DNA of 58,878 nt. Origin: Candidatus Eiseniibacteriota bacterium. Its GTDB lineage: Bacteria > Eisenbacteria > RBG-16-71-46 > DASYSL01. The stretch covers positions 1 to 58,878 of the forward strand of contig JANPEF010000094.1 in NCBI GenBank assembly GCA_031431875.1, given 5' to 3'. Shown in pieces: positions 1,566-15,840 of the stretch. A program made the position numbers and the translations under genes. Positions within the stretch are counted from its first letter, which is position 1. The number at the start of each line of letters is the position of its first letter. A model generated the notes under the pieces. The model searched no databases, was not told the origin of the DNA, and worked only from the letters and a program-made list of their open reading frames with translations.

Positions 1566-2180
1566 GTGCGCCCGTTGCACCGCTCGTCGTCCGCCTCGTT
1601 CCTCGCCGTCGCCACTCTCGTGGCGCTGGCGCTCGCCGCGTTCGCGTCCCGACCCGGCCGCGCCGCCGACGATGCGCCCTTGTCGCTGTCGATGACGAAG
1701 GGCAGCGAGCTGACGAAGCAGGAGGACAAACAGGTTCGCGCGACGCTCACGCACTACCTGGGCGCGCTGCAGAAGCGCGACTGGCGAACGGCCGCGCAGG
1801 ACCTCGACCGCGAGTCGTTCCTCGCCGGTGTCGACCCGCTGATCGCCTCGATCTCGTCGGACTCGACGACGCGTCCGGCGGCGCTCCGCAAGGTGTTCGG
1901 CGTGAGCACGGATGACTCGTTGAAGGCCACGTCGACCGAGGACCTGTTCGCCTCGATGATGAACTACGTGATCGAACTCGATCCCGGCGGGGCGGCGATC
2001 ATGACGCGCGCGAAGTTCGCCCTGCTCGGCGCGCGCCGCCTGCAGGACAGGGTCCACATCGCCTACCAGTTGACCCTGCCCGCCGAGAGCGACAGCGTGC
2101 AACCCTACACCAGCATCACCGCCGAACAATTGAAGAAGGTCGGGAAGGACTGGAAGATCGTGTTCCGCATGGGAAGCTAG
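1566..2180 (+). CDS. secreted hypothetical protein (possibly NTF2-like fold)
   Basis: GAAAGGAG RBS then GTG at 1566, in the frame of ORF 1020..2180; signal peptide ending ...RPGRA-A; C-terminal LKKVGKDWKI strand pattern. Confidence 0.65.
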   Translation: MRPLHRSSSASFLAVATLVALALAAFASRPGRAADDAPLSLSMTKGSELTKQEDKQVRATLTHYLGALQKRDWRTAAQDLDRESFLAGVDPLIASISSDSTTRPAALRKVFGVSTDDSLKATSTEDLFASMMNYVIELDPGGAAIMTRAKFALLGARRLQDRVHIAYQLTLPAESDSVQPYTSITAEQLKKVGKDWKIVFRMGS

Positions 2181-3062: not shown

Positions 3063-3181
3063 GCCGGGGTCCGCTTCGGTCCCACCTGCAAACGGGGATG
3101 CGCCCCCGGGGACCGGTCGCAGATTCCAAGGAGGCTGACCCCGCGCCGTGGGGCCGGGCCTCCGTTTTCGTAAAGGGTGCC

Positions 3182-4390
3182 ATGAAGGCCGTGGAGACCA
3201 AGCGGACGGACCTGTTCGCCAAGACGCGTTCGTTCGTCCGGGCGAAGGAACTCAAGGCCGCGGGCTTCTACCCGTACTTCATCCCGATCGAGGGCTCGGA
3301 AGACACCGAGGTCATGATCGAGGGCAAGCAGCTGATCATGGTCGGCTCGAACAACTACCTCGGGCTCACCCACCATCCCAGGGTGCTCGAGGCCGCCGAG
3401 GCCGCGTCGCGGCGCTATGGCACGGGCTGCACCGGCAGCCGCTTCCTCAACGGCACGCTCGACCTGCACGAGAAGCTCGAGGCCGACCTCGCCGCCTACA
3501 CGGGCTACGAGGCTGCGCTCGTCTTCTCGACCGGCTACCAGACCAACCTGGGCATCATCCAGAGCCTGGTCGGTCGCGACGACACCGTGCTGGTCGACAA
3601 GCTCGACCACGCCTCGATCCTCGACGGTTGCCAGATGTCGCAGGGCGAGACGGTGCGCTTCCGCCACAACGACACGGCGGACCTCGACCAGGAACTCGAG
3701 CACCTGTCGGGCAAGAAGGGCGGCGCGCTGATCGCCGTCGACGGCGTGTTCTCGATGGAGGGGGATATCGCACCGTTGCCGGCCCTGATCGCGGTGGCGA
3801 AGAAGCACGGCGCGCGGCTGTTCGTCGACGAGGCGCACTCGCTCGGCGTGATCGGGCCGTCCGGCGCGGGTGCCGTCGATCACTTCGGCGTGCAGAAGGA
3901 CGTCGACCTGATCATGGGTACCTTCAGCAAGTCGTTCGCCTCGATCGGCGGCTTCGTCGCCTCCGAGAGCGACGTGATCCACTACCTCAAGCACCATGCG
4001 CGCTCGCTCATGTTCTCGGCGGCGATGCCGCCGTATGCGGTGGCCACGGTGCAGGCGGCGCTGCAGATCATCAAGGACGAGCCCGAGCGGCGCGTCAACC
4101 TGATCAAGAACGCCGACTACCTGCGCAGTGGTCTGCAGTCGCTCGGGTTCGACACGGCGACCAGCGAGACGCCGATCATCCCGGTGATCATCGGCGACTT
4201 CATGAAGACCTTCCAGTTCTGGCGGGGGCTGTATGACAACGGCGTGTTCGCCAACTGCGTCGTCGCCCCGGCCGTGCCGCCCAACGCCTGTCGCATCCGC
4301 ACGTCGTTGATCGCCACGCACACGACCGAGCAGCTGGACCGCGTGATCGACGTCTTCGCGAAGGTGGGCAAGCAGTTCGGGGTCGTCTGA
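3182..4390 (+). CDS. spt: serine palmitoyltransferase (alpha-oxoamine synthase family, PLP)
   Basis: GSNNYLGL, GTGCTGSRFLNGT, DHASI, DEAHS, GTFSKSF (PLP Lys); N-terminal YPYF; adjacent bCerS-like gene; ATG 3182 chosen because of the AAAGGG RBS. Confidence 0.8.
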   Translation: MKAVETKRTDLFAKTRSFVRAKELKAAGFYPYFIPIEGSEDTEVMIEGKQLIMVGSNNYLGLTHHPRVLEAAEAASRRYGTGCTGSRFLNGTLDLHEKLEADLAAYTGYEAALVFSTGYQTNLGIIQSLVGRDDTVLVDKLDHASILDGCQMSQGETVRFRHNDTADLDQELEHLSGKKGGALIAVDGVFSMEGDIAPLPALIAVAKKHGARLFVDEAHSLGVIGPSGAGAVDHFGVQKDVDLIMGTFSKSFASIGGFVASESDVIHYLKHHARSLMFSAAMPPYAVATVQAALQIIKDEPERRVNLIKNADYLRSGLQSLGFDTATSETPIIPVIIGDFMKTFQFWRGLYDNGVFANCVVAPAVPPNACRIRTSLIATHTTEQLDRVIDVFAKVGKQFGVV

Positions 4391-5517
4391 GCGCGATCGA
4401 GATCCGCACCGTTCAGGGCGCGGCCGACTTCACCCGCTTCGTCGAGTTGCCCTACCGCCTGTACGGTGACGACCGCATGTGGGTCCCCCAGCTCAAGAGC
4501 GACGTCCGCGGCATGTTCGACCGTCTCAGGAACCCGTTCTTCGCCCACGCCGAGATCGAATCCTTTCTCGCCCTCGCCGGGGATCGCGTGGTCGGGCGCA
4601 TCGTCGCGATCGACAACCGCGCGCACAACGAGTTCCACGGCGACCAGGTCGGCTTCTTCGGCTTCTTCGAGTGCGAGGACGATCCGGCGGCCGCGACGGC
4701 GCTGTTCGACGCCGCCGCGGCGTGGCTCGCCGCTCGCGGCAAGGACGTGCTGCGCGGGCCGATGAACTTCTCCACCAACGACGATTGCGGCTCGCTGATC
4801 GAGGGCTTCAACACGCCGCCGGCGATCATGATGCCGCACAATCCCGCGTACCACGCGCGGCTCTACGCCGCCGGTGGGTTCGCCAAGGCGAAGGACATCG
4901 TCGCCTACTGGTACGAGGGGGACACGCTTCCCGAGCGCGTCACGCGCGGGGTCGAACTGGTGCGCAAGCGCAAGGGCGTGACGGTGCGCCCGCTCGACAT
5001 GAAGCGCTTCGAGCAGGAAGTGGGCCTCATCCGCACGATCTACAACGACGCGTGGGAGCGGAACTGGGGCTTCGTGCCCATGACCGAGGCCGAGATCGAC
5101 CACATGGCGGAGCAATTGAAGCCGGTGGTCGAGCCCGGGCTCATCGTCTTCGCCGAGATCCGCGGCGAGCCGGTCGGCTTCGGCCTTGGCCTGCCGGACT
5201 TCAACCTTGCACTGAAGCATGCCAACGGCGAGCTGTTCCCCTTCGGCTTCCTGTCGATCCTGTGGCACAAGCGGAAGATCCGCCAGGCGCGCATCCTCAC
5301 GCTGGGCGTGCGCTCCGGCTATCGCGCCTCGGGCATCGACGCGCTGCTCATCTCCGAGCTGTTCGGCCGTTGCGTCGCCATGGGGATCTTCAAGGGCGAG
5401 TTCTCATGGATCCTGGAGGACAACCTCGCGATGCGCCGGCCGCTCGAGAACATCGGGGCCCGGGTGTACAAGACGTACCGTGTCTACGACCGGCCGCTCG
5501 TCGGCGCGGGCGCATGA
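4387..5517 (+). CDS. GNAT-fold acyltransferase, bacterial ceramide synthase (bCerS/YghO-like)
   Basis: LY.DD.MWVP, NPFF, GRI.A, FGFFE, GPMNF, NWGF, SWILEDN, KTYRVY; family-like N-terminus extends upstream of TTG 4447 to a CTG at 4387 that overlaps the spt stop. Confidence 0.75.
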   Translation: MSAIEIRTVQGAADFTRFVELPYRLYGDDRMWVPQLKSDVRGMFDRLRNPFFAHAEIESFLALAGDRVVGRIVAIDNRAHNEFHGDQVGFFGFFECEDDPAAATALFDAAAAWLAARGKDVLRGPMNFSTNDDCGSLIEGFNTPPAIMMPHNPAYHARLYAAGGFAKAKDIVAYWYEGDTLPERVTRGVELVRKRKGVTVRPLDMKRFEQEVGLIRTIYNDAWERNWGFVPMTEAEIDHMAEQLKPVVEPGLIVFAEIRGEPVGFGLGLPDFNLALKHANGELFPFGFLSILWHKRKIRQARILTLGVRSGYRASGIDALLISELFGRCVAMGIFKGEFSWILEDNLAMRRPLENIGARVYKTYRVYDRPLVGAGA

Positions 5518-5521
5518 GCGG

Positions 5522-6520
5522 ATGAGCCGCGACGTCCTGGTCACCGGCGGGGCCGGCTTCGTCGGCAGCCACGTGGTCGACGCGCTCCTCGTCCGCGGGG
5601 AGCGCGTTCGCGTTCTGGTGCGCGCGACGACGGACCGTCGCTTCCTGCCCGCCGATCGCGTGACGTTCGTCCCGGGTGACGTGGGCGACGAGTCCGCGGC
5701 GGGCGAAGCCGAGCTCGAGCGCGCGAGCGCCGGCGCGCGCCTCGTCATCCACGCGGCCGGGGTCACGCAGGCGCGGCACCGCGACGACTTCGCGCGGGTG
5801 AACTCGCGCGGTACGGAGCGCATGACGCGGGCGGCGCGGTCTGCCGGCGTGGCGCGCATCGTGCTCGTGTCGTCGCAGGCCGCCGCCGGGCCCACGCCGG
5901 GCTCGTCGCCCCGCGTGGAGGGCGATCCCGACGCGCCCCTCGGCGCCAACGGGGCGAGCAAGCGCGCGGCCGAACACGCCGCGCGCGCGACCCTGTCGGG
6001 TGGGGCGACGGAGCTGGTCATCGTCCGGCCTCCGGCCGTTTATGGGCCGCGCGACCGGGCATTCCTCGCGCTGTACCACCTGGTGAACCGCGGAATCGTG
6101 CCGCTCCACCGGCCCGAGCGACAGTGGGTGAGCCTGGTCCACGCGCGCGACCTGGCGGTGGCGTTGGCGCTCGCGGGGGAGCGCGGTCGGCCCGATTCGA
6201 CGTACTATGTGACGGACGGTGTGCCCCGGACGTCGGCCTCGATCGTCGACGCGATCGCCTCGTCCCTTGGCAAACGGCCGTGGCGGCTCGACCTGCCGGC
6301 GGCGATGCTGGGGCTTGCGGTCGGTGCGGCCGAGGTATTCGCGGCCGCGACGGGCCGGCCGTCGCAGCTCACCCGCGAGCGGCTGGCCGACTGGACCGCC
6401 CCGCGCTGGACCGTGTCGGACGAGGCGGCGCGGCGCGACCTGGGGTACGCCCCGACGATCGGCTTCAAGCCCGGCATCGAGGAGACAACCGCGTGGTATC
6501 GGAGCACCGGGTGGATCTGA
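5522..6520 (+). CDS. extended SDR / NAD-dependent epimerase-dehydratase (candidate 3-oxo-ceramide or keto-sphinganine reductase)
   Basis: TGGAGFVG Rossmann motif, HAAG, VSSQAA, RPPAVYGPRD; YxxxK reads NGASK. Confidence 0.8.
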   Translation: MSRDVLVTGGAGFVGSHVVDALLVRGERVRVLVRATTDRRFLPADRVTFVPGDVGDESAAGEAELERASAGARLVIHAAGVTQARHRDDFARVNSRGTERMTRAARSAGVARIVLVSSQAAAGPTPGSSPRVEGDPDAPLGANGASKRAAEHAARATLSGGATELVIVRPPAVYGPRDRAFLALYHLVNRGIVPLHRPERQWVSLVHARDLAVALALAGERGRPDSTYYVTDGVPRTSASIVDAIASSLGKRPWRLDLPAAMLGLAVGAAEVFAAATGRPSQLTRERLADWTAPRWTVSDEAARRDLGYAPTIGFKPGIEETTAWYRSTGWI

Positions 6521-7527
6521 AGGTGATCGAAGGCACCGGCCCGCGTCCGGGCAGCGGGCCGCCGCGGCCGCGCTGGGGCGGGCCGGCGCCGGAGCGTCTG
6601 CATTCGGGCGAGAGCGGCCTGCGTCCGGTCGACGTGCTGATCCTCGGCTACGTTCTGCTCACCGGGCTGCTCATCCTTGGCGCGACGAAGAACCTGCCAA
6701 TGTGGCCGCTGCATCTGGCCGTGCGGCTGGTCGCCGTCGTCGCGATCCTGCGCCTGGTGCCGCGGCGGCCGCGCAACCCGGTGCTCGCGTTCCTGCGCGA
6801 CTGGTACCCGATCGCCACGTTCATCCCGCTCTACATCGAGCTGTCGTCGCTGACGCGCCTGTTCACCACGCAGCACTACGACGAGCTCCTCGTCACGTGG
6901 GAGTCCGCGTTGTTCGGCGGGCAGCCGAGCCAGTCGTGGCACGTTCTCTATCCGTCGCTGGTCCTGTCGGAGTACCTGCACTTCTCGTACTTCTACTACT
7001 ACTTCGTGCCGACGACGCTGTGCCTGTGGCTGTACGCGCGCGGCGAGCGCGCCCGCTTCTCCCGCGCACTGACGGCGATCCTGGGCTCGTTCCTGGCCTG
7101 CTGCCTGATCTACCTCATCTTCCCCGTGGTCGGGCCGTTCCATCACTTCGGGCACGCGCCGGCCGCGTCGTGGGGCGGGTTCTTCGCTCCGCTGGTGCAC
7201 GGCATCGTCGAGCGCGGATCGTCGCCGGGGACCGCGTTTCCCTCGTCGCACACGGCCGTCTCGGTCGTCACGTGGCTGGTGGCGTGGCGGCTGTGCCGCC
7301 CGGCGTTCTTCGTGCTCACCGCGATCGTGCCCGCGCTGGCGCTGGCCACCATCTACGGCGGGTTCCACTACGCACTCGACACGCTCGCCGGCGCGGCGCT
7401 GGGGGCCGGGATGGCGTTCCTCGCGCCGGGCATCCACGGCCGGCTGACCCGGCTCGTTTTGCGAAAAAAGGCCCAAGAATCGCGCCTTCCTTTCGCTTCC
7501 CAGGGGCCGGGTGACCCACTAAGATAG
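6511..7527 (+). CDS. PAP2-superfamily membrane protein, Aur1/Ipt1 (PAP2_3)-like phosphotransferase or phosphatase
   Basis: Multiple TM helices; FPVVGP, AFPSSH and YGGFHYALD motifs; no KxxxxxxRP motif; GGAG before GTG 6511 (start uncertain). Confidence 0.75.
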   Translation: MDLKVIEGTGPRPGSGPPRPRWGGPAPERLHSGESGLRPVDVLILGYVLLTGLLILGATKNLPMWPLHLAVRLVAVVAILRLVPRRPRNPVLAFLRDWYPIATFIPLYIELSSLTRLFTTQHYDELLVTWESALFGGQPSQSWHVLYPSLVLSEYLHFSYFYYYFVPTTLCLWLYARGERARFSRALTAILGSFLACCLIYLIFPVVGPFHHFGHAPAASWGGFFAPLVHGIVERGSSPGTAFPSSHTAVSVVTWLVAWRLCRPAFFVLTAIVPALALATIYGGFHYALDTLAGAALGAGMAFLAPGIHGRLTRLVLRKKAQESRLPFASQGPGDPLR

Positions 7528-7592: not shown

Positions 7593-8717
7593 ATGAGCAG
7601 CTTCGTCGCCCCAAGGAACGTCGCCATCCCCGTCGAGCGCACCGCCGTCTCCGGCGAGCGGCTGTGGCTGCACAGCAAGCGTTGGGATCTCACGTTCCTC
7701 GTCGGCAGCGCGGTGCTGGGCGCGATCCCGCTCCTGATGCTGCATGTGTTCAACGTCCCGGTCTCGGCGATCAACCTGATCGTCTCGGGAATCGTGGGGG
7801 GTCCACACCTGTACTCGACGTTCGGCTACACCCTGGCCGACCGTTCGTACCGCAAGCGCTACGGCCTGATCCTGCTGCCGATCCTGTTCATCCCGGTCGG
7901 CGTGATCTACCTCGCGCTCAACAACCTGAACCTGCTCATCACGGTGTTCTTCTTCTGGGCCTCGGTGCACGTGCTGCACCAGATCGCCTACATCAACGAC
8001 GCTTACCGGTTCAAGGATCCGCGGCCGCGCACCATCTGGAATCGCGCCATCGACTACGGCGTGATCTTCAGCGCGCTGTACGCCGCCTCGAGCTCGCGCC
8101 TGGTCACCGGCGGCTTTGTCGTCGGCGGCGGCACGAATCCGCGCGAAATCATGATCCCCGAGTTTGCCAAGGGCGCCATGTGGATCCCGACCATGGCGAC
8201 GGCCGGCTTCCTGATCCTGCTCGCGCTGTATGTGGCGAAGACCGTGCGCGAGCACAAGGAAGGGCGGCTCAACCTGCCGTCGGTCGCGATCATCGGCACC
8301 TCGGTCGTGATGTCGCTGGCGATCCCGCAGTTCCCCAACATCGACATCGCGTTCCAAGGCTACAACACGTGGCACTCGTTCCAGTACCTGGCGCTCGTCT
8401 GGTACATCAACAAGCTGCGGCTGGAGCGGGGCGAGATCCACGGACCGGTCATGCGCGCGGTATCCGGCCCGGCCAACACGTGGAAGTTCTACGGCCTTTT
8501 CCTGGGCGCCACGGTGATCGCGTTCGCCACCTCGCTGGTGTTGCAGTACGGCTTCGGCTGGCCGCGCGACGCAGCGTACTACGGCGTCGTGCTGGGCACA
8601 CTGCTGGTGCACTACTACCTCGACGGGCTCAACTTCTTCTCGTGGGGCCGCCTGATCGGCGGCGAGCCGGGCTCGAGCGAACTGGCCGCGATGACGCGGC
8701 AACAAGGCGCTGCCTGA
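7593..8717 (+). CDS. polytopic membrane protein with four His motifs (putative metalloenzyme)
   Basis: GGAGGA RBS; about 9-10 hydrophobic segments; GPHLYST, VHVLHQ, WHSFQY, VHYYLD. Confidence 0.75.
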   Translation: MSSFVAPRNVAIPVERTAVSGERLWLHSKRWDLTFLVGSAVLGAIPLLMLHVFNVPVSAINLIVSGIVGGPHLYSTFGYTLADRSYRKRYGLILLPILFIPVGVIYLALNNLNLLITVFFFWASVHVLHQIAYINDAYRFKDPRPRTIWNRAIDYGVIFSALYAASSSRLVTGGFVVGGGTNPREIMIPEFAKGAMWIPTMATAGFLILLALYVAKTVREHKEGRLNLPSVAIIGTSVVMSLAIPQFPNIDIAFQGYNTWHSFQYLALVWYINKLRLERGEIHGPVMRAVSGPANTWKFYGLFLGATVIAFATSLVLQYGFGWPRDAAYYGVVLGTLLVHYYLDGLNFFSWGRLIGGEPGSSELAAMTRQQGAA

Positions 8718-8816: not shown

Positions 8817-9461
8817 CTAGCTAGCCTTGGCTCTGTACTTGATCGAGCAGCCCAGCGCCTTCGTCTGCGCGGTCGCCACCGACTTGCCGGAGGCGACGGC
8901 CGTGACCGCGTTCTCGAGGTAGGGCTTGGTCACCTTCGCCGCGTCGTCGGCGTTGTCGTCGATCGCGCCGTGGTAGACGAGCGCGCCGGTGGTGTCGAAC
9001 AGGAACACCTCGGGCGTCCGGCTGGCGCCGAACGCGCGGGCGACGTCGCTCGTCAGGTCCATCGCGTAGGCGAACTTCATGCCCAGCTTCTTCGCCCGCG
9101 CCTGCATGACGTCGTAGCCGTCCTCCTTGTTGCGCGCGGGATCGTTCGAGTTGATGGCCACGACGCCGATGCCGCGCTTGACCGCGTCATTGCCGATCTT
9201 CGCCGCGCGGGCTTCCCACTTCTTGGCCCAGGGGCAGGCATTGCAGGTGAAGATCACCAGCGTGCCCTTCTTGCCCTTGGCCGAAGCGATGGTCACGTCC
9301 TTGCCGTCGACGTTCTTGAGCTTGGCGTCGGCCATCGGAATCGCGGCGCCGAGGGCGATCGGGGTCGGCGCCGGCGCGTTCTGCTGCGCCAGGGCCGGGG
9401 TGACGGGAGCCGCGGCGAGCGCCACGAAGGTGGCCAGGGCGGCGATGGAACGAGCAAACAT
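8817..9461 (-). CDS. exported thioredoxin-fold redoxin (AhpC/TSA, PRX-like1 type)
   Basis: Signal peptide; FTCNACPW, INSND, FGASRTPEVF, YHGAIDD, GCSIKY; GGAGG RBS before ATG 9461. Confidence 0.85.
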   Translation of the reverse strand: MFARSIAALATFVALAAAPVTPALAQQNAPAPTPIALGAAIPMADAKLKNVDGKDVTIASAKGKKGTLVIFTCNACPWAKKWEARAAKIGNDAVKRGIGVVAINSNDPARNKEDGYDVMQARAKKLGMKFAYAMDLTSDVARAFGASRTPEVFLFDTTGALVYHGAIDDNADDAAKVTKPYLENAVTAVASGKSVATAQTKALGCSIKYRAKAS

Positions 9462-9487
9462 GGAGGGCCTCCGAAAGTGTGGGTGCG

Positions 9488-10045
9488 TCAGTTGCCGGAT
9501 GCTAGAGCCGGGAGGACACGGGCGCGCAGCGAGTCGTACGACGCCTTGCCCTCCCACGAGCGGACCCGCCGACCTGCTTCATCGTAGAGGAAGGACCCGG
9601 GGAGTGCGCCAGACCAGGATGGGTCGAGGGTGTCAATAAATTGCATGTCGTCACCGGTCTTGAGGTACGCGGGACCGCCCACGCCCTGCTCGGCGAGGAA
9701 CGACTTTGCATTCGGCAGGTCGTCGGTGAAGTCGGCCGAGACGAAGATCACGCGGAGGCCCTGGTCCGCCAGCTCGTGCGACAGGCGCACCAGGTCGGGG
9801 AACTCCTCGCGGCACGGCTGGCACCAGCTGGCCCAGACATTGACCAGGGTGAGCTTCGCGCCACCGGCGCGGACCGCGGCGACGACCCCCGGGCCGTCGA
9901 CCGCCGTGAACACGATCGAGGCGGTGTCGACGGGGGCGGCGGCTTGAGGTTGCGGGGATTCGTGCCGCTCGGGAGTGCAGCCGGTGAGGACGACGAGCGT
10001 CAGGACGATCGCCGCGACGCGGCCGGGAATGGATCGGGTTCTCAT
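9488..10045 (-). CDS. TlpA/ResA-family thiol-disulfide oxidoreductase lipoprotein
   Basis: Lipobox LTGC; NVWASWCQPCREEFP; WSGALP; ATG overlaps the upstream TGA. Confidence 0.85.
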   Translation of the reverse strand: MRTRSIPGRVAAIVLTLVVLTGCTPERHESPQPQAAAPVDTASIVFTAVDGPGVVAAVRAGGAKLTLVNVWASWCQPCREEFPDLVRLSHELADQGLRVIFVSADFTDDLPNAKSFLAEQGVGGPAYLKTGDDMQFIDTLDPSWSGALPGSFLYDEAGRRVRSWEGKASYDSLRARVLPALASGN

Positions 10046-11082
10046 GGAGTGGGTTCTCCAAAGTCCCTGGCGACGAAGACACGGAACGAGACGGGGACAT
10101 CGAGCTGCGCGCCGGTGGCCCGGCCCCAGAGGGGCACGCGGAGCTCGCCCCCGAGCGTGACTCCGAGCTTCGCCGCGGCGTGGGCAGCGCGCGCCTCGGC
10201 GTAGAGGTCGGTGCGTCCGAGGTTTCCCTCGCTCTCGACGTGGCCCGCCCAGGTCTCGGTGCTCTCGCCGTAGAGCGTCGGCCCGAGCGAAAGGGTCGTG
10301 CGCGGAATGCCGAAGCTGCTCGAGGCGTAGATCTGCCCGAGCATCTGGTCCCCCGCGCGGTAGCCGTCCTGGTTCGTCCACACGCCCCAGCGCGCGATCA
10401 CCTGCGCCGTCGCCGCCCAGCCATCGAAGGCACGAACCAGCCCGAGCGAGGCGATCGGCTGCACGGTTCCACTGCCCATCTGGACGTGCTCGTGCGGCAG
10501 GCCCTCCTCGCCGAGCACGAACGGATTCTCCACCGTGCTGCCGAGCGGCAGGCTCACCCCGGCGCGCGCACCCAGCGTCCAGCCACCACGCTGTGTCCCG
10601 GTCGCGACCAGCAGCCACGGATCGGCGAGGCCGGTGAGGGTCCGGTTCGTGTGGTGAAAGTCCGGCGGATCCGGCGTGAACGGCACGCCTTCGAGCGTGC
10701 GAAACGTGATCTGCTGACGATTGAGTCGCAGCGGCACGAGTGCCTCGACGGCGACGCCGCGAGCGACTCCCCACTGGGCGGAGAGGCTCAAGTCGGCGGT
10801 CTCGATCTTCAGGTCATGCCGGTACGGCGTGACTTCCATCGAGTCGCAGGCCGGGCCCAAGTCCGGGCAGTGCTGTTCATGTTGATTGCGGAATCCACCT
10901 CCGCCCAGCCCCATGCTCACGTGCACGGTGCGGGCCGGCACGGGCAATACGCTCCGCCCGCCGACCGGCAGGCCGGGATTGCTTCAACCGGCTCAGCCCG
11001 CATCGGCGTGGGTCACGCCAGGGAAGACCACGCCGGCGAGCGCGACGATGAAGCCGAGCCCGAGGAGAGGGTGCCGCCTCAC
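10042..11082 (-). CDS. putative selenoprotein: outer-membrane channel-like protein with N-terminal UxxU motif (two in-frame TGA, 346 aa)
   Basis: GTG 11082 overlaps the upstream stop; the signal peptide continues in frame through TGA 10995-10993 and TGA 10986-10984 into ORF 10042..10947; GLADP..L, GVSLPLG and QMGSGT motifs and alternating beta-strands resemble COG4313/MetA-pathway channels. Confidence 0.75.
10944..10982 (-). promoter_or_regulatory. bacterial SECIS-like stem-loop
   Basis: mRNA after the second UGA: A-GCAAU-CCCGG-CCUGCC-GGUC-GGCGGG-CGGAGCGU-AUUGC; the apical loop begins 17 nt after the second UGA and 26 nt after the first. Confidence 0.65.
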
Positions 11083-11768
11083 TTGCCGCCGGCCTTCGCG
11101 ATCGCGCGATCGAGACGGTCGAGGTCGAGGCCCTGGATCGCGGCCACGCGCTTGCCCTTGCCGTCGTAGACGAGGACATAGGGAAGCCCCGAGGTGTTCT
11201 TCAGGTAGCGGCGGGCGAGCGGGGTTTCCCAGTCGACGACATCGAGCTTGCGCAGCGCGATGTCCGGGCGGGCGGCGAGAACGATCTTCATGTGGCGGTC
11301 GACGCTGCGGCAGGGGCCGCACCAATCGGCGTAGAAGTCGACAACGGTGACCTTGCCGGGGACGAGGATCGCGGCGAGGTCCGGCAGGTCCTTGCCGCCC
11401 CGCACGGCGATCGCGACGTCGGACGCCGGATCGAAGCCCTCGGGGGGCAGCCACCGGCCCTTGCCCGGGCCCTCGACTGCAGTGAATCCAGCGCGCTTCA
11501 CGGCGGCGATCAACTCGGAAGTGTCCAGCGGGCGATCAGCGACGATCGTGACTTCGACGCTGCGGCGGTCGAAGCGCAGGCCGGTGATGCCCTTCACCTG
11601 CTTCAGTTGGGGCTTCACCTTTTCCCAGCACGTTGCGCAGTCGAGTCCCTGCAGGGACAGGACGACCTCTTGCGGCGCATCCTTTGCGCCGGCCGAGCAT
11701 GGCGTCGCGAATGCGACGAGCGCAAGCAGCACGAGGAACGCCGCGAGACGGCTGCGAAGCGGGATCAT
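11079..11768 (-). CDS. exported heavy-metal-associated (HMA) domain plus thioredoxin fusion
   Basis: Signal peptide; GLDCATC HMA motif; DFYADWCGPC thioredoxin motif; ATG overlaps the MFS stop. Confidence 0.85.
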   Translation of the reverse strand: MIPLRSRLAAFLVLLALVAFATPCSAGAKDAPQEVVLSLQGLDCATCWEKVKPQLKQVKGITGLRFDRRSVEVTIVADRPLDTSELIAAVKRAGFTAVEGPGKGRWLPPEGFDPASDVAIAVRGGKDLPDLAAILVPGKVTVVDFYADWCGPCRSVDRHMKIVLAARPDIALRKLDVVDWETPLARRYLKNTSGLPYVLVYDGKGKRVAAIQGLDLDRLDRAIAKAGGK

Positions 11769-13180
11769 GACTTCGACAGTACGCTCGTCAGCGGTGCGCG
11801 ACAAGCCTGGGCGACCAGCGCCTCGAGCTCGTCACGCTGCACGCCGCCGGGCCAGTGACGCACGCGCACCGGCGCGCCCGCGGTCCAGTCGGCCTCGAGC
11901 ACCGCGGCCCGGCCGACGAGCGCGCGATGCACCGCGCCCCAGCTCGACTCGTCGAGCCCGGGCGCGTCGAGCAGCGTCTCGACCAGCGTGGCGGGATCGC
12001 GCAGCAGGCGCAGCGACAGCGCCCACACGGCGATCGCCACGGCGAGCACGATCAGCGGCGCGCCGCGGCCGACCGGAAGGATCAATCCCGACACCGCGCC
12101 GCCGATGAAGGCGCCCGAGAACTGGACCATGTTGAAGACGCCGGCAGCGGTGCCCCGTGCACCGCGTCCGGTGTACAGCGTGAGCAGTGCGGCGAGCAGC
12201 GGCTCGATCGCGCCGAACCCGGCCACGAACACGGCGAGGAAGACGGTGGTCAGGCCGAGGTCGCGATGGAACGCGGCGAGTCCGACCAGGCCGACGATCA
12301 TCGCCACGGCGGCGACCGCGAGCACGGCGCGGCGGCGGGACGCGCGGTCGGCGATACGCGAACTGAGCAGGAGCGAGCCCAGGCCCGCCAGCAGCGCGGG
12401 CGCGTAGACCTTCCACAGCGCGAGGTCGGCGACGCCGCGGTCCTTGAGCACGAACGGCACGACGACGAACAGGCCCGTCACCGCTGCGTGCAGCACGAAG
12501 ATGCCGCCGTCGAGCACGAGCAGCGAGCGGTCATGAAACAGCGAGCGCGCCTCGGCCCACGACCACGATCCCGGCGAACCCGGCCGGGCGCGATGGCCGC
12601 GCACCATGTGCGGCACGAGGCGCGTCGGCACCAGGACCTCGAACAGCAGCACGCCGACGATCGAGAGCACGGCCGCCGCGCCGAACACCGCGGGGACACC
12701 AGCCTGCGCCGAGACGAGCGGGCCGAGGAGGAAGCCCGCGGCGAACGCGAAGCCCAGGATCAGGCCCAGCAACGCCATGCCCCGCGTGCGCACCTCGTCG
12801 CGCGTGTGATCGCCGATCAGCGCGATCATCGTCGAGGCCATCGCACCCACGCCCTGGATCAGGCGGCCCACGATCACGGCGCCGATCGAACCGGCCCAGG
12901 CCACGACCGCCGAGCCGAGCGAGAAGATGAGCAGCGCGACGATGATGACGAGGCGCCGGCCGCGCAGGTCCCCGAGGATGCCGAGCGGGACCTGGAAGAT
13001 CGCCTGGGTGAGCCCGTAGGCGCCGAGCGCGATGCCGACCAGGAACGGGGTCGCGCCCGGCAGCCCGGCGGCCCAGGTGGCCATCAGGGGCAGGGCCATG
13101 TAGAGCCCGACCATGCGCAGGGCGTAGACGCCGCTGGTGCCCAGCACGATGCGCAGTTCGTCGCGGGAAAATGGGGCCAT
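11765..13180 (-). CDS. MFS transporter, YajR-like
   Basis: LRMVGLYMALP, GAYGLTQAIFQVPLG.LGD.RGRR motif A; 12 TM helices plus a small C-terminal soluble domain. Confidence 0.85.
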   Translation of the reverse strand: MAPFSRDELRIVLGTSGVYALRMVGLYMALPLMATWAAGLPGATPFLVGIALGAYGLTQAIFQVPLGILGDLRGRRLVIIVALLIFSLGSAVVAWAGSIGAVIVGRLIQGVGAMASTMIALIGDHTRDEVRTRGMALLGLILGFAFAAGFLLGPLVSAQAGVPAVFGAAAVLSIVGVLLFEVLVPTRLVPHMVRGHRARPGSPGSWSWAEARSLFHDRSLLVLDGGIFVLHAAVTGLFVVVPFVLKDRGVADLALWKVYAPALLAGLGSLLLSSRIADRASRRRAVLAVAAVAMIVGLVGLAAFHRDLGLTTVFLAVFVAGFGAIEPLLAALLTLYTGRGARGTAAGVFNMVQFSGAFIGGAVSGLILPVGRGAPLIVLAVAIAVWALSLRLLRDPATLVETLLDAPGLDESSWGAVHRALVGRAAVLEADWTAGAPVRVRHWPGGVQRDELEALVAQACRAPLTSVLSKS

Positions 13181-13185
13181 GCCGC

Positions 13186-13227
13186 ATTGTACCCGGCTTG
13201 CCGCCCGACGGGCGCGGTCGGTATGAT
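13186..13227. promoter_or_regulatory. divergent promoter pair
   Basis: Minus strand: TACAAT (13191-13186), 5 nt before the MFS ATG. Plus strand: TTGCCG (13198-13203), N18, TATGAT (13222-13227). Confidence 0.5.
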
Positions 13228-13305
13228 GCCGGCTCCTCGCGGTGGATCGCCCGGCACGATGCAGGGCGGCCTCGCCTCACCCACGCAGCGGCGGGAAAGG
13301 CCCGG

Positions 13306-14091
13306 ATGCTCGGCTTCCTCGGCGGTCTCCTCGGCAGCTTCGCGCGGTTTCTCGCGGGGCTCCAGGAACTGACGTTGTTCTCGGCGCGGGTCTTTCGATC
13401 CTGCTTCCGGGGGCCGTTCTACTGGCGCGACGTCTACGAGCAGGCCTACGTGGCGGGTGTGGGCTCCATGCACCTGGCGCTCATCTCGGCGTTCTTCGCC
13501 GGGCAGGCGCTGGGCCTGCAGTTCGCGCGCCAGCTCGCCGAGACGGGGACGGTGACCCTGCTCGGCACGCTGATGACCATCGCGGTCGTGCGCGCGCTGG
13601 GGCCCGACCTGATCGGCCTGGTCGTCGCCGCGCGCATGGCCTCGGGCTACACTGCCGAGATCGGCGCCATGAAGAGCGCCAACCAGATCGACGCCCTGGT
13701 CGCCTTCGGCACGGATCCGATCAAGAAGCTGGTCGTGCCGCGCGTGCTGGCGCTGTTCGTCATGTTGCCGTTGCTCGTCATCCTCGGCGACGCGGTCGCG
13801 CTGATCGGCGGCGCGATCATGGCCAAGTACGTGGCGCACGTGTCCCTGAGCCTGTACTGGAGCCAGGCGTCGCGCGCCATGACCTTCGGCACCATCCTGA
13901 TCGGCGTCGTCAAGCCCGCGGTGTTCGCACTCCTGATCTCGTTGATCGGCTGCTGGAAGGGCTTCACCAGCTCGGGCGGCACGCGCGGTGTGGGTCGCTC
14001 GACGACCGAGTCGGTGACCATCGTCTCGGTGATGCTGCTGATCACGGACTTCATGCTGACGCGCGTGCTGTTCGCGCTGTTGCGCTGGTGA
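13306..14091 (+). CDS. mlaE: MlaE-family ABC permease
   Basis: LGP.LIGLVVAAR.ASGYTAEIGAMK..NQIDAL...GTDP...LVVPR, GVGRSTT.SV. Confidence 0.9.
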   Translation: MLGFLGGLLGSFARFLAGLQELTLFSARVFRSCFRGPFYWRDVYEQAYVAGVGSMHLALISAFFAGQALGLQFARQLAETGTVTLLGTLMTIAVVRALGPDLIGLVVAARMASGYTAEIGAMKSANQIDALVAFGTDPIKKLVVPRVLALFVMLPLLVILGDAVALIGGAIMAKYVAHVSLSLYWSQASRAMTFGTILIGVVKPAVFALLISLIGCWKGFTSSGGTRGVGRSTTESVTIVSVMLLITDFMLTRVLFALLRW

Positions 14092-14107
14092 GGCGGGAGG
14101 TGAGGGC

Positions 14108-14911
14108 ATGATCCGCTTCGACCACGTGCACTACTCGATCGGCGGCCGGAAGATCCTCGAGGACGTCTCCTTCGACGTGCAGAAGGGGACGACGAAGATC
14201 ATCCTCGGGCCGTCCGGCATCGGCAAGAGCACGGCGCTGCGGCTGATCCTTGGGCTCGTTCGGCCGGACAGCGGGGACATTCTCATCGACGGACGGAGCG
14301 TGGTGAAGGCGGACCGCGAGGAGCTGGACAAGATCCGCCAGGAAATCGGCATGGTGTTCCAGGACGGGGCGCTGTTCGACTCGCAGACCGTGGGGGAGAA
14401 CGTGGGCTACTGGCGCCTCGAGAACTCGGACCAGACTGACGACGAGATCGAGGCCGTCGTGCGCGAAAAGCTGACGCTGGTCGGGCTCGATCCGGAGCTG
14501 ATCGACTCGATGCCCGACGAACTGTCGATCGGCATGCAGCGCCGCGTCGCCATCGCCCGCGCACTGGCCTCGGGGCATCCCAAGATCATCCTCTACGACG
14601 AGCCCACGACCGGCCTCGATCCGAACTCGCTGGAACTGGTCACCGACGCGATCCTGCGGCTGCGCAACGAGCTGGGCATGACCTCGATCGTGGTCACGCA
14701 TCAGCTTACCGACGCCCTCAAGGTGGGCAGCGACTACCTGTTCCTGTTCGACCGCGGCGTGCAGTTCGAAGGCGATGCCAGGGCACTCGCGGCCAGTGAC
14801 GATCCGAAGTTGCGCCAGTTCCTCGACCCGTTCCGCAAGAGCCTGGCCGAAGCCGCCGAGAATTTCGGCGTGGGTCGTGCCGGTGAAGCCACGAGGGTTC
14901 AGACGCCATGA
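14108..14911 (+). CDS. mlaF: MlaF-family ABC ATPase
   Basis: GPSGIGKS, VFQDGALFDS, LSIGMQRRVAIARAL, LYDEPTTGLDP, VVTH. Confidence 0.9.
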   Translation: MIRFDHVHYSIGGRKILEDVSFDVQKGTTKIILGPSGIGKSTALRLILGLVRPDSGDILIDGRSVVKADREELDKIRQEIGMVFQDGALFDSQTVGENVGYWRLENSDQTDDEIEAVVREKLTLVGLDPELIDSMPDELSIGMQRRVAIARALASGHPKIILYDEPTTGLDPNSLELVTDAILRLRNELGMTSIVVTHQLTDALKVGSDYLFLFDRGVQFEGDARALAASDDPKLRQFLDPFRKSLAEAAENFGVGRAGEATRVQTP

Positions 14912-15840
14912 AACGATCCGGAGACATCCGCTGGGGCGAGCTCCGACTCGGCCTCTTCATCTTCGTCGCACTGGCCGTGTTCCTGTGGGCGTCGATCCAG
15001 GGCGGCACGACCCTGTTCAAGAAGCAGTACGAGCTGCACTCCGAGTTCCCCAACGTGCAGGGCGTGGTCGCCGGCGCACCCGTGTGGTTCCAGGGCGTCG
15101 AGGTGGGCACCGTCAAGACGCTCGACTTCGTCGCCTCGGGCGACTCCTCGAAGGTGCGGATCACGTTCACGGTCAACAACCGGGTGTGGCCGCTCATTCG
15201 CGAGGACTCGAAGGTGAAGATCCAGGCGCTGAACCTGTTCGGCGAGAAGTTCATGGAAGTGACGTCGGGCTCACGCTCGGCCGCCCCCGTGCAGGAGGGC
15301 GCGATGCTCGGCTCGGAGCGCCCGACCGACGTGACCCAGCTGATGGCGCGCGGCGAGGGCATCGTCGACGACCTCGGGGTGACGGCGAAGGACCTCAAGG
15401 AGCTCTCCGCGAAGGTGCGCCGCGGCGAGGGCACGCTGGGCAAGCTGGCCACATCCGACGAGCTGTACACGAACCTCAACTCGACGATTGCGCAGGTCCG
15501 CGCGCTGACCGCCAGCCTGGACAAGAGCCAGGTGCAGATGAGCCGCTCGCTCACCGCCACCGCCAACTCGCTCGACAGCGTGATGACGCTGATCCACTCG
15601 GGCGACGGCACCCTCGGCAAGATGGCCCGCGACCCGGCCCTGTACGACAACCTGAGCCGGGCGAGCGGGCGGGTCGACTCGACGCTGGCGCGGGTCGAGC
15701 GCGGCGAGGGGAGCCTGGGGCGGCTGACCAGGGACGACGCCGCGGCGGTGAACCTGGAGAAGAGCCTCGACCAGCTGAACAAGCTGCTGGCCGACCTGCA
15801 GGCGAACCCGAAGAAGTACTTCAAGGTCAGCGTGTTCTAG
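14908..15840 (+). CDS. mlaD: MlaD/MCE-domain protein
   Basis: N-terminal TM; GAPVWFQGVEVGTV; LFGEKFMEV; repeated G(E/D)G(T/S)LGKL helical units; NPKKYF. Confidence 0.9.
   Translation: MKRSGDIRWGELRLGLFIFVALAVFLWASIQGGTTLFKKQYELHSEFPNVQGVVAGAPVWFQGVEVGTVKTLDFVASGDSSKVRITFTVNNRVWPLIREDSKVKIQALNLFGEKFMEVTSGSRSAAPVQEGAMLGSERPTDVTQLMARGEGIVDDLGVTAKDLKELSAKVRRGEGTLGKLATSDELYTNLNSTIAQVRALTASLDKSQVQMSRSLTATANSLDSVMTLIHSGDGTLGKMARDPALYDNLSRASGRVDSTLARVERGEGSLGRLTRDDAAAVNLEKSLDQLNKLLADLQANPKKYFKVSVF

Follow-up and report, generated by a model that had tools for sequence, protein, structure and literature searches.

The minus strand of contig JANPEF010000094.1 from a Candidatus Eiseniibacteriota bacterium (GenBank assembly GCA_031431875.1; positions 1 to 58,878, referred to below as the window) carries a gene at 10042-11082 in which two in-frame UGA codons, those of residues 30 and 33, are very probably read as selenocysteine (Sec, U) in an outer-membrane protein, as judged by comparison with related sequences. 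The best explanation overall, held with good though lesser confidence, is a beta-barrel with two Sec residues on a tail that is served by a partner protein encoded alongside. The features of the gene are as follows.

10042..11082, minus strand: complete putative selenoprotein gene, 346 codons plus a TGA stop at 10044-10042; homologs read through.
11005..11082, minus strand: signal peptide, codons 1-26, VRRHPLLGLGFIVALAGVVFPGVTHA; cleavage placed by eye after THA.
10993..10995, minus strand: first in-frame UGA, residue 30, predicted Sec; Cys in the CxxU and CxxC homologs.
10984..10986, minus strand: second in-frame UGA, residue 33, predicted Sec; at the canonical distance from the hairpin.
10944..10982, minus strand: selenocysteine insertion sequence (SECIS) element, inside codons SNPGLPVGGRSVLP; based on covariation and comparison with the FdhA SECIS of the same genome.
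10060..10929, minus strand: predicted 12-strand outer-membrane beta-barrel domain, precursor residues about 52-341; based on AlphaFold2 (AF2) models and structure matches.

Reading frame, leader and public homologs

The minus-strand frame runs VRRHPLLGLGFIVALAGVVFPGVTHADAG-TGA(10995-10993)-GCC-GGT-TGA(10986-10984)-SNPGLPVGGRSVLPVPART with no shift into the 301-aa open reading frame (ORF) at 10042-10947, and D-A-G stands between the VRRHPLLGLGFIVALAGVVFPGVTHA leader and the first TGA. This single frame from the GTG at 11082 was the core of the original prediction and is confirmed in the sequence, as are the 4-nt overlaps that it placed at both gene ends. The GTG start (11082-11080) shares a GTGA (11082-11079) with the upstream gene, which stops at its TGA, and the gene's own TGA stop (10044-10042) lies in an ATGA with the ATG of the next gene (10045). 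TGA closes this gene and is therefore also an ordinary stop here, in agreement with the earlier remark that it acts as a normal stop elsewhere in the window. An alternative code in which TGA is Trp or Gly was ruled out, because TGA ends both this gene and its upstream neighbour and homologs carry Cys. Sequencing data bear out the two TGAs in part: contigs of runs X1 and X3, which may come from the source sample, agree with the window letter for letter over 10700-11300 and contain both; those of X5 and X6, runs of another study, do so over 10700-10986, leave 10987-11121 uncovered and include the second TGA only. A 459-base contig of run X3 (record 3) aligns with the window only in the UGA-SECIS region (10949-11015), where it has 5 differences. 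Its flanks diverge, and it probably represents a copy of the barrel family from a second organism.

Public homologous loci were taken as the best 80 of 252 relatives from a scan of one genome per species, and all locus counts rest on public loci; the stretch of L006 (genome G007) is also in the public record behind L015. The residues at the two codons are UxxU in 43 loci (a count that includes L091, with TSP in place of SNP), CxxU in 17, CxxC in 20 and UxxC in none, so that the second UGA is present in 60/80 loci and both UGAs in 43/80. Neither Trp nor an unconserved residue was found at the two motif positions in any of the 80. Because Cys homologs align at both UGA codons, the loci form a classical Sec/Cys pair; of the mixed forms named in the original prediction, CxxU was found at the exact positions and UxxC was not. 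A six-frame search covering 60 related genomes gave full-length matches at 5 loci in 4 genomes, each with 2 TGA codons inside the match, and the loci of these 4 genomes share with the window the pattern TGA-NNN-NNN-TGA at the same codons. The family occurs in genomes labelled Eiseniibacteriota, Myxococcota, Acidobacteriota, Dormiibacterota and Verrucomicrobiota and in a few metagenome-assembled genomes with loose labels, and CxxU forms are present in the cultured myxobacteria Archangium gephyra, A. violaceum Cb vi76, Myxococcus sp. RHSTA-1-4 and Pyxidicoccus caerfyrddinensis.

The protein database holds 58 relatives, all named 'hypothetical protein' except two thioredoxin fusions. They are mostly 217-313 aa long and start after the TGAs, and the window's own entry has 299 aa, the truncation by gene callers that had been foreseen. 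Such calls (most at 265-301 aa) would suit a reading in which the upstream part is separate, with the true gene being the 301-aa ORF from TTG 10947 and the TGA stretch a leader or regulatory RNA. This is very improbable. Frame, leader and SNPNLP motif are conserved at the protein level in all 80 loci, and four full-length database proteins of the Cys form (P0026, P0029, P0033 and P0034; 341-350 aa) are continuous, read C-A-G-C at the motif and hold leader, motif and barrel in one frame. Although its fold is that of an outer-membrane barrel, the 301-aa ORF lacks a signal peptide, and TTG 10947 falls inside the lower SECIS stem.

Hydrophobic leaders equivalent to that of the window gene are found in all homologs. 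In the 83-sequence sets, which comprise the barrels used for the tree, the N-terminal alignment and the second AF2 model, an AxA-like site judged by eye lies directly before the first Cys/Sec in 72/83 loci, and the first Cys/Sec would therefore be mature residue 1; the clade of the window has 3 extra residues between this site and the first Sec. The product is predicted to be an exported outer-membrane protein of about 320 residues once the signal peptide is removed. A lipoprotein reading of the first Cys/Sec was ruled out, as the preceding residues are AxA-like and there is no lipobox.

A quick maximum-likelihood tree of the 83 barrels, unrooted and built without the first 16 residues or any fused thioredoxin, requires at least 8 changes among the CxxC, CxxU and UxxU states. 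The CxxC forms fall into two clades (Polyangiaceae and allies) that branch from within the Sec forms, and switches between CxxU and UxxU are recurrent, for example between the sisters L024 and L028. One locus, L011 (G055:C48; motif at locus positions 2107-2118, minus strand), holds a shortened copy in which the leader and UAGUTNPNQP run into the HHRNET region. It lacks some 100 residues, which correspond roughly to strands one to three, as well as the 3' arm of the hairpin, and could be a copy in decay or an assembly error.

The hairpin and the probable decoding of the two UGA codons

The stem-loop placed after the TGAs by the original prediction is present as drawn. Its lower stem pairs GCAAU (10982-10978) with AUUGC (10948-10944), its apical stem pairs GCCUGCC (10973-10967) with GGCGGGC (10962-10956), and the loop is GGUC (10966-10963). 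It begins 10-11 nt past the second UGA, within the codons for SNP(N/G)LPVG(G/R), and the first loop G lies at +21 when counted from the second UGA, or +30 when counted from the first. Among 63 distinct Sec-form sequences (46 UxxU and 17 CxxU), which align without gaps over 66 columns, the hairpin stands directly after the second UGA in 63/63 and the GGUC loop is invariant.

Compensatory changes occur at three stem pairs: 23-40 (AU 36, CG 7, GC 2, unpaired 18), 24-39 (CG 49, GC 7, UA 7) and 27-36 (CG 39, GC 18, UA 5, GU 1). Neither of the latter two has a broken cell, nor does pair 26-37 (UG 40, UA 23). Paired cells amount to 85.1%, compared with 37-57% when the 3' partner column is slid by 1-3, and changes on both sides were counted in 47 cells against at most 10 in the slid controls; 0/500 shuffles reach the observed value. 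RNAalifold recovers the same six-pair stem independently. The seventh pair, 23-40, is formed in 43/46 UxxU but 2/17 CxxU sequences, a bias that may reflect shared ancestry or the need for a stronger hairpin where two UGAs are read. The lower stem is clade-specific, with GCAAC/GUUGC or GCAAU/AUUGC in the group of the window and CGA/UCG where the Ser codon is UCG.

The GGTC loop and the stem are absent from all 20 Cys forms, and the hairpin is conserved in TGA-bearing copies, as had been looked for. Stem pairing constrains the protein, with the Leu codon CUN covarying with the Gly/Arg codons that follow, and PVG(G/R) is consequently confined to Sec forms; the Cys forms carry PTAR, AVTR, PITK and others at this position.

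The Sec machinery sought under the names selA, selB, selC and selD is all present in the genome, which is 98.45% complete. It includes selA, selB (with the SelB wing domain), selD and one tRNA-Sec scoring 68 bits, the only gene above the Rfam cut-off (47 bits), with the next-best match at 43.8 bits; ARAGORN reports one tRNA-SeC (tca) and one ordinary 76-nt tRNA-Cys (gca). Among five other genomes of uncertain completeness, selA was found in 2/2 with the Sec form (L026, L044) and 0/3 with the CxxC form (L035, L056, L041). The genome also encodes a second selenoprotein, which offers a local standard for hairpin spacing.

G000:C135 (L095), TGA at locus position 1583: formate dehydrogenase alpha subunit (FdhA), a further selenoprotein of this genome; its single in-frame TGA lies in SCNRTUHAPSV.

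The FdhA hairpin, CGUCGUC-GGUCU-GGCGACG, starts 11 nt past its UGA and has the first loop G at +22. The hairpin of the barrel gene is therefore spaced for the second codon, which fits the absence of UxxC among the 80 loci. That a single SECIS serves both UGAs fits this anatomy and appears likely from the sequence comparison. A crude genome-wide scan of open frames for TGA followed by a GGTC-loop hairpin gave 31 matches among 52,228 GGTC sites, mostly noise, and is blind by design to the window site, where the two TGAs break each other's flanks.

One or both UGAs might instead not be Sec, through Cys insertion by a tRNA of the tRNA-ReC type or through termination, for the most part, at the first UGA, in which case the product would be CxxU, CxxC or a short peptide. 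The available text of PMC13582414 finds such tRNAs enriched with UXXU hydrogenases, in which either UGA may then be Cys, and the first UGA of the barrel gene lies 9 nt beyond the FdhA spacing. This alternative is nevertheless improbable: the near-complete genome has only the one tRNA-Sec-like gene above cut-off beside its ordinary tRNA-Cys, and a site that mainly terminated an essential leader would hardly be expected to keep its TGA, as the first one is kept in 43/80 loci from at least five phyla. Double Sec decoding is the reading carried forward below.

Predicted barrel fold and gene neighbourhood

The view that this is an outer-membrane protein is supported by modelling. A first AF2 model from 35 sequences reached a predicted local distance difference test score (pLDDT) of 85.2, and a second, of the mature protein with 83 full N-termini, reached pLDDT 91.7 and a predicted template modelling score of 0.87. 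In the modelled barrel, 12 long strands are joined by short turns at one end and by long loops at the opposite end. The top structure match is the COG4313 channel 4rl8 (Z 23.1; root-mean-square deviation 2.5 over 245 of 267 residues; Foldseek E 1.3e-9), followed by FapF (5o65) with Z 22.0, and autotransporter and porin barrels score Z 18 or less. Sequence identity to the solved chains is 11-13%. No NCBIfam (release 20) model matches the barrel at E <= 0.1. PF13557 is weakly matched in 5/35 relatives (best E 7.1e-6), and 21% of the members of one look-alike cluster in the ESM Atlas carry it. With the fold match, these weak matches indicate a divergent branch of the barrel superfamily that is no member by the Pfam test.

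Residues invariant in the 83 sequences are, in mature numbering, C1, C4, N6, P7, H39, H60, H115, D125, H168, H170, Q172, E247, W249 and G260-R261, with H114 nearly so; in precursor numbering the invariant histidines are His68, His89, His144, His197 and His199, and His143 is nearly invariant. The HEQHC, HH and HEH clusters pointed out earlier are all present. In strand order, the invariant His and the EGNLGRTD motif fall in or beside the long loops, and the loop-rich His end would be extracellular if the N-terminus is periplasmic, the usual barrel layout. The first ~12 mature residues are predicted to form a flexible tail on the periplasmic side that holds the diselenol. A second Cys pair, H-x3-C-P-D-x-G-P-x-C, lies in the first long loop (CPDLGPAC, residues 72-79, window 10868-10845) and is kept in most of the family; L007/L075, L008, L009, L014 and L015 have a shorter Cys-free loop.

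The genes adjoining the barrel gene in the window encode further thioredoxin-fold proteins.

11079..11804, minus strand: partner, an exported protein with an HMA (CxxC) domain and a thioredoxin fold (WCGPC); start codon uncertain.
9488..10045, minus strand: TlpA-like thioredoxin-fold lipoprotein (LTGC lipobox, WCQPC), downstream.
8817..9557, minus strand: second exported redoxin (AhpC/TSA-Redoxin, CNACPW); true start probably further in.

A thioredoxin-domain gene adjoins the barrel gene in 71/80 loci, usually immediately upstream, and in 7 of those 71 the thioredoxin domain is fused to the barrel C-terminus to give proteins of 436-498 aa. The fusion loci are L023, L029, L042, L059, L082, L087 and L090, and in some of them the linker is His-rich or acidic, as in HAHAHDHGDDHDDHDDH and HEHEHEHEHEHE. 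Every partner carries an N-terminal module, which is either HMA or, in lipoproteins, a Cys/His-rich double motif. The HMA domain of the window partner matches MerP (2e-7) and CopZ (8e-7).

The Myxococcota-type partner lipoprotein is seen at L018:3282-3944, L047:3348-3980, L056:3309-3947 and 25 more loci in the alignment. Its motif is C-x-H-x-V-P-x3-C-x2-[CH]-[HN]-P followed by D-W-C-x2-H-x2-P-E-S-Q-C-x2-C-H-P-D-L, before the thioredoxin domain. The double motif corresponds to no Pfam family and gives cytochrome c matches at chance level only; its sequence resembles two small metal-binding knuckles. A heme c reading of the partner CxxCH was ruled out, as other partners have CxxCN or CxxHH at this position. 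Complex prediction for the Cys-form barrel of L056 with its partner scored 0.00 against a mark of 0.32 and counts neither way.

Clustering of flanking ORFs found no other neighbour in more than 12/80 loci. Weak TlpA, DsbE and DsbD-domain matches occur among barrel neighbours, and DsbD/CcdA is not among the conserved neighbours. The MFS gene of the window is common only to its closest relative (1/80 loci). The window surroundings are an envelope-lipid neighbourhood, with a divergent MlaE, ABC ATPase and MlaD operon on the plus strand (13171-15840), PAP2 (6124-7527), an NAD-epimerase (5219-6520) and a class I/II aminotransferase (3098-4390). The plus-strand ORF at 7593-8717 encodes a multi-pass membrane protein with no Pfam family.

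Proposed role and comparison with known systems

In the proposed mechanism, SelB and tRNA-Sec, recruited by the single SECIS, would read both UGAs of U-A-G-U near the mature N-terminus. The barrel, with the invariant His cluster at its extracellular end, would give a path to or from the outside, and the tail diselenol (a dithiol in the Cys forms) would be a mobile arm, redox-active or binding soft metals, at the periplasmic face. The thioredoxin domain of the partner would keep the arm reduced and its metal-type domain would exchange cargo with the arm, so that the pair would move a thiophilic metal (Cu, Hg) or reducing equivalents between periplasm and barrel. This proposal for function is made because of the gene linkage and domain content, from which a role in metal handling is suggested tentatively.

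A number of results weigh against this picture. The window barrel matches no Pfam family at E <= 1, PF13557 included, and only the fold and weak matches in relatives connect it with COG4313. Mature residues 1-12, which include the U/CxxU/C motif, have pLDDT below 50 and are unplaced even with 83 N-termini, and any contact of the diselenol with the His cluster or with the partner protein is conjectural. Histidines suit borderline or hard metals, selenols soft ones. The HMA type accounts for only about 11/80 partners (in Eiseniibacteriota, Acidobacteriota and others), and the TlpA-like and redoxin genes are conserved only in the close clade of the window, at 1/80 loci each. At the RNA level, the first UGA is 9 nt farther from the hairpin than the FdhA spacing of the genome, an Rfam scan of 10850-11100 at E <= 10 found no SECIS family and three chance matches far below cut-off, and single-sequence folding is unremarkable in this G+C-rich DNA (z = -1.28; 24/200 shuffles as stable). 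As the folding energy of the lone sequence is unexceptional, the case for recoding rests on comparison.

The same protein and decoding would also allow the arm to be a pure redox relay, from the partner to the diselenol and on to a substrate in or beyond the barrel, for example at a metal cofactor of the His cluster. The thioredoxin-fold partner adjacent in 71/80 loci and fused in 7 of these, the three exported thioredoxin-fold genes in the operon of the window, and an invariant His cluster that could hold a catalytic metal are consistent with such a relay. It is judged only slightly less likely than metal handling. Against it, the N-terminal domains of the partners look like metal binders (HMA; the Cys/His-rich motif), the conserved neighbours include no candidate substrate and no DsbD/CcdA-type electron donor, and the tail is not modelled inside the barrel. 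A relay of this kind would make a thiol/selenol electron path across the outer membrane.

The broadest version of the metal or electron proposal is less likely than not. It would be an uncatalogued two-part envelope system in at least five phyla. A Sec-x-x-Sec 'fishing line' at the mature N-terminus would carry electrons or a thiophilic metal at or through the barrel and would be reset by a dedicated lipoprotein that joins a metal-binding domain to thioredoxin, with one SECIS for both UGAs 9 nt apart. If this were true, the absence of UxxC would imply that the second, canonically spaced codon became Sec first (CxxC to CxxU to UxxU).

From the sequence evidence, the barrel family is a new, well-supported selenoprotein family absent from Pfam and NCBIfam, and not a new principle. 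Full-text literature searches found no paper on it, and the available part of PMC13188914, a May 2026 catalogue review, does not list it and has no PF13557, COG4313 or Myxococc-. Its Sec residues would sit on the tail of a barrel in the outer membrane, and few selenoproteins are known from that compartment or that fold. Its natural CxxC/CxxU/UxxU series with one strongly covarying hairpin makes the question of one SECIS for two UGAs, 9 nt apart, testable. The near-universal pairing with a partner that joins a metal domain to thioredoxin points to an undescribed envelope metal or redox pathway. For annotation, pipelines could regain about 45 N-terminal residues, export signal included, in hundreds of genomes.

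Among outer-membrane proteins, the COG4313/PF13557 (Phenol_MetA_deg) channels and FapF have the 12-strand barrel in common with the window protein, which differs in its family-specific His cluster, EGNLGRTD, N-terminal U/CxxU/C tail and dedicated thioredoxin partner. The solved COG4313/FapF channels have an N-terminal plug helix and links to hydrophobic substrates or amyloid export. PcoB (7pge), one of the PcoB/CopB-type copper barrels, is a similarly built barrel (Z 11.5) and matches no better than many other barrels. Exported thioredoxin-fold proteins dedicated to one CxxC client are found in periplasmic relays for reduction or metal delivery, namely TlpA with ScoI/CoxB, DsbD-CcmG and Scs; the client here is instead an outer-membrane barrel with selenols, and no DsbD/CcdA is conserved nearby. 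Sec in an outer-membrane barrel is also listed in the available table of PMC13188914 for GSU2204 (MtrB/PioB-type, NF041027) and the TonB-dependent receptor of FCYXU type (NF049945), as in the window protein, but according to that table these are other barrel families with one Sec each, and neither model matches the window protein.

The original prediction had called UxxU motifs rare and compared the gene with SelL. They are less rare than stated: the same table lists a Prx-like thiol:disulfide oxidoreductase (UxxC/UxxU), the NF041115 metal-binding family (UxxU) and FmdB (UxxU), and the available text of PMC13582414 describes Group 4 [NiFeSe] hydrogenases with CXXU, UXXC and UXXU and raises the possibility of one SECIS for both UGAs. 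In its available part PMC13188914 links many proteins of the UxxU/CxxU type to metals. NF041115 does not match the barrel, and the HMA domain of the partner matches it weakly (27.8 bits against a cut-off of 95). The likeness to SelL holds for the motif and not for the fold, since SelL has a thioredoxin fold around its UxxU and the barrel family lacks that fold, with NF040769 unmatched. Like the known UxxU/CxxU selenoproteins, the barrel family has two predicted Sec at CxxC spacing, Cys-form homologs and a SECIS that follows closely and opens its apical loop with G, and its CxxU and UxxU forms share one hairpin. It differs from them in having no UxxC among the 80 loci and in its fold: theirs are Trx, HMA, zinc ribbon and hydrogenase, whereas that of the barrel family is an outer-membrane beta-barrel whose flexible tail carries the motif, either right at the mature N-terminus or 3 residues in.

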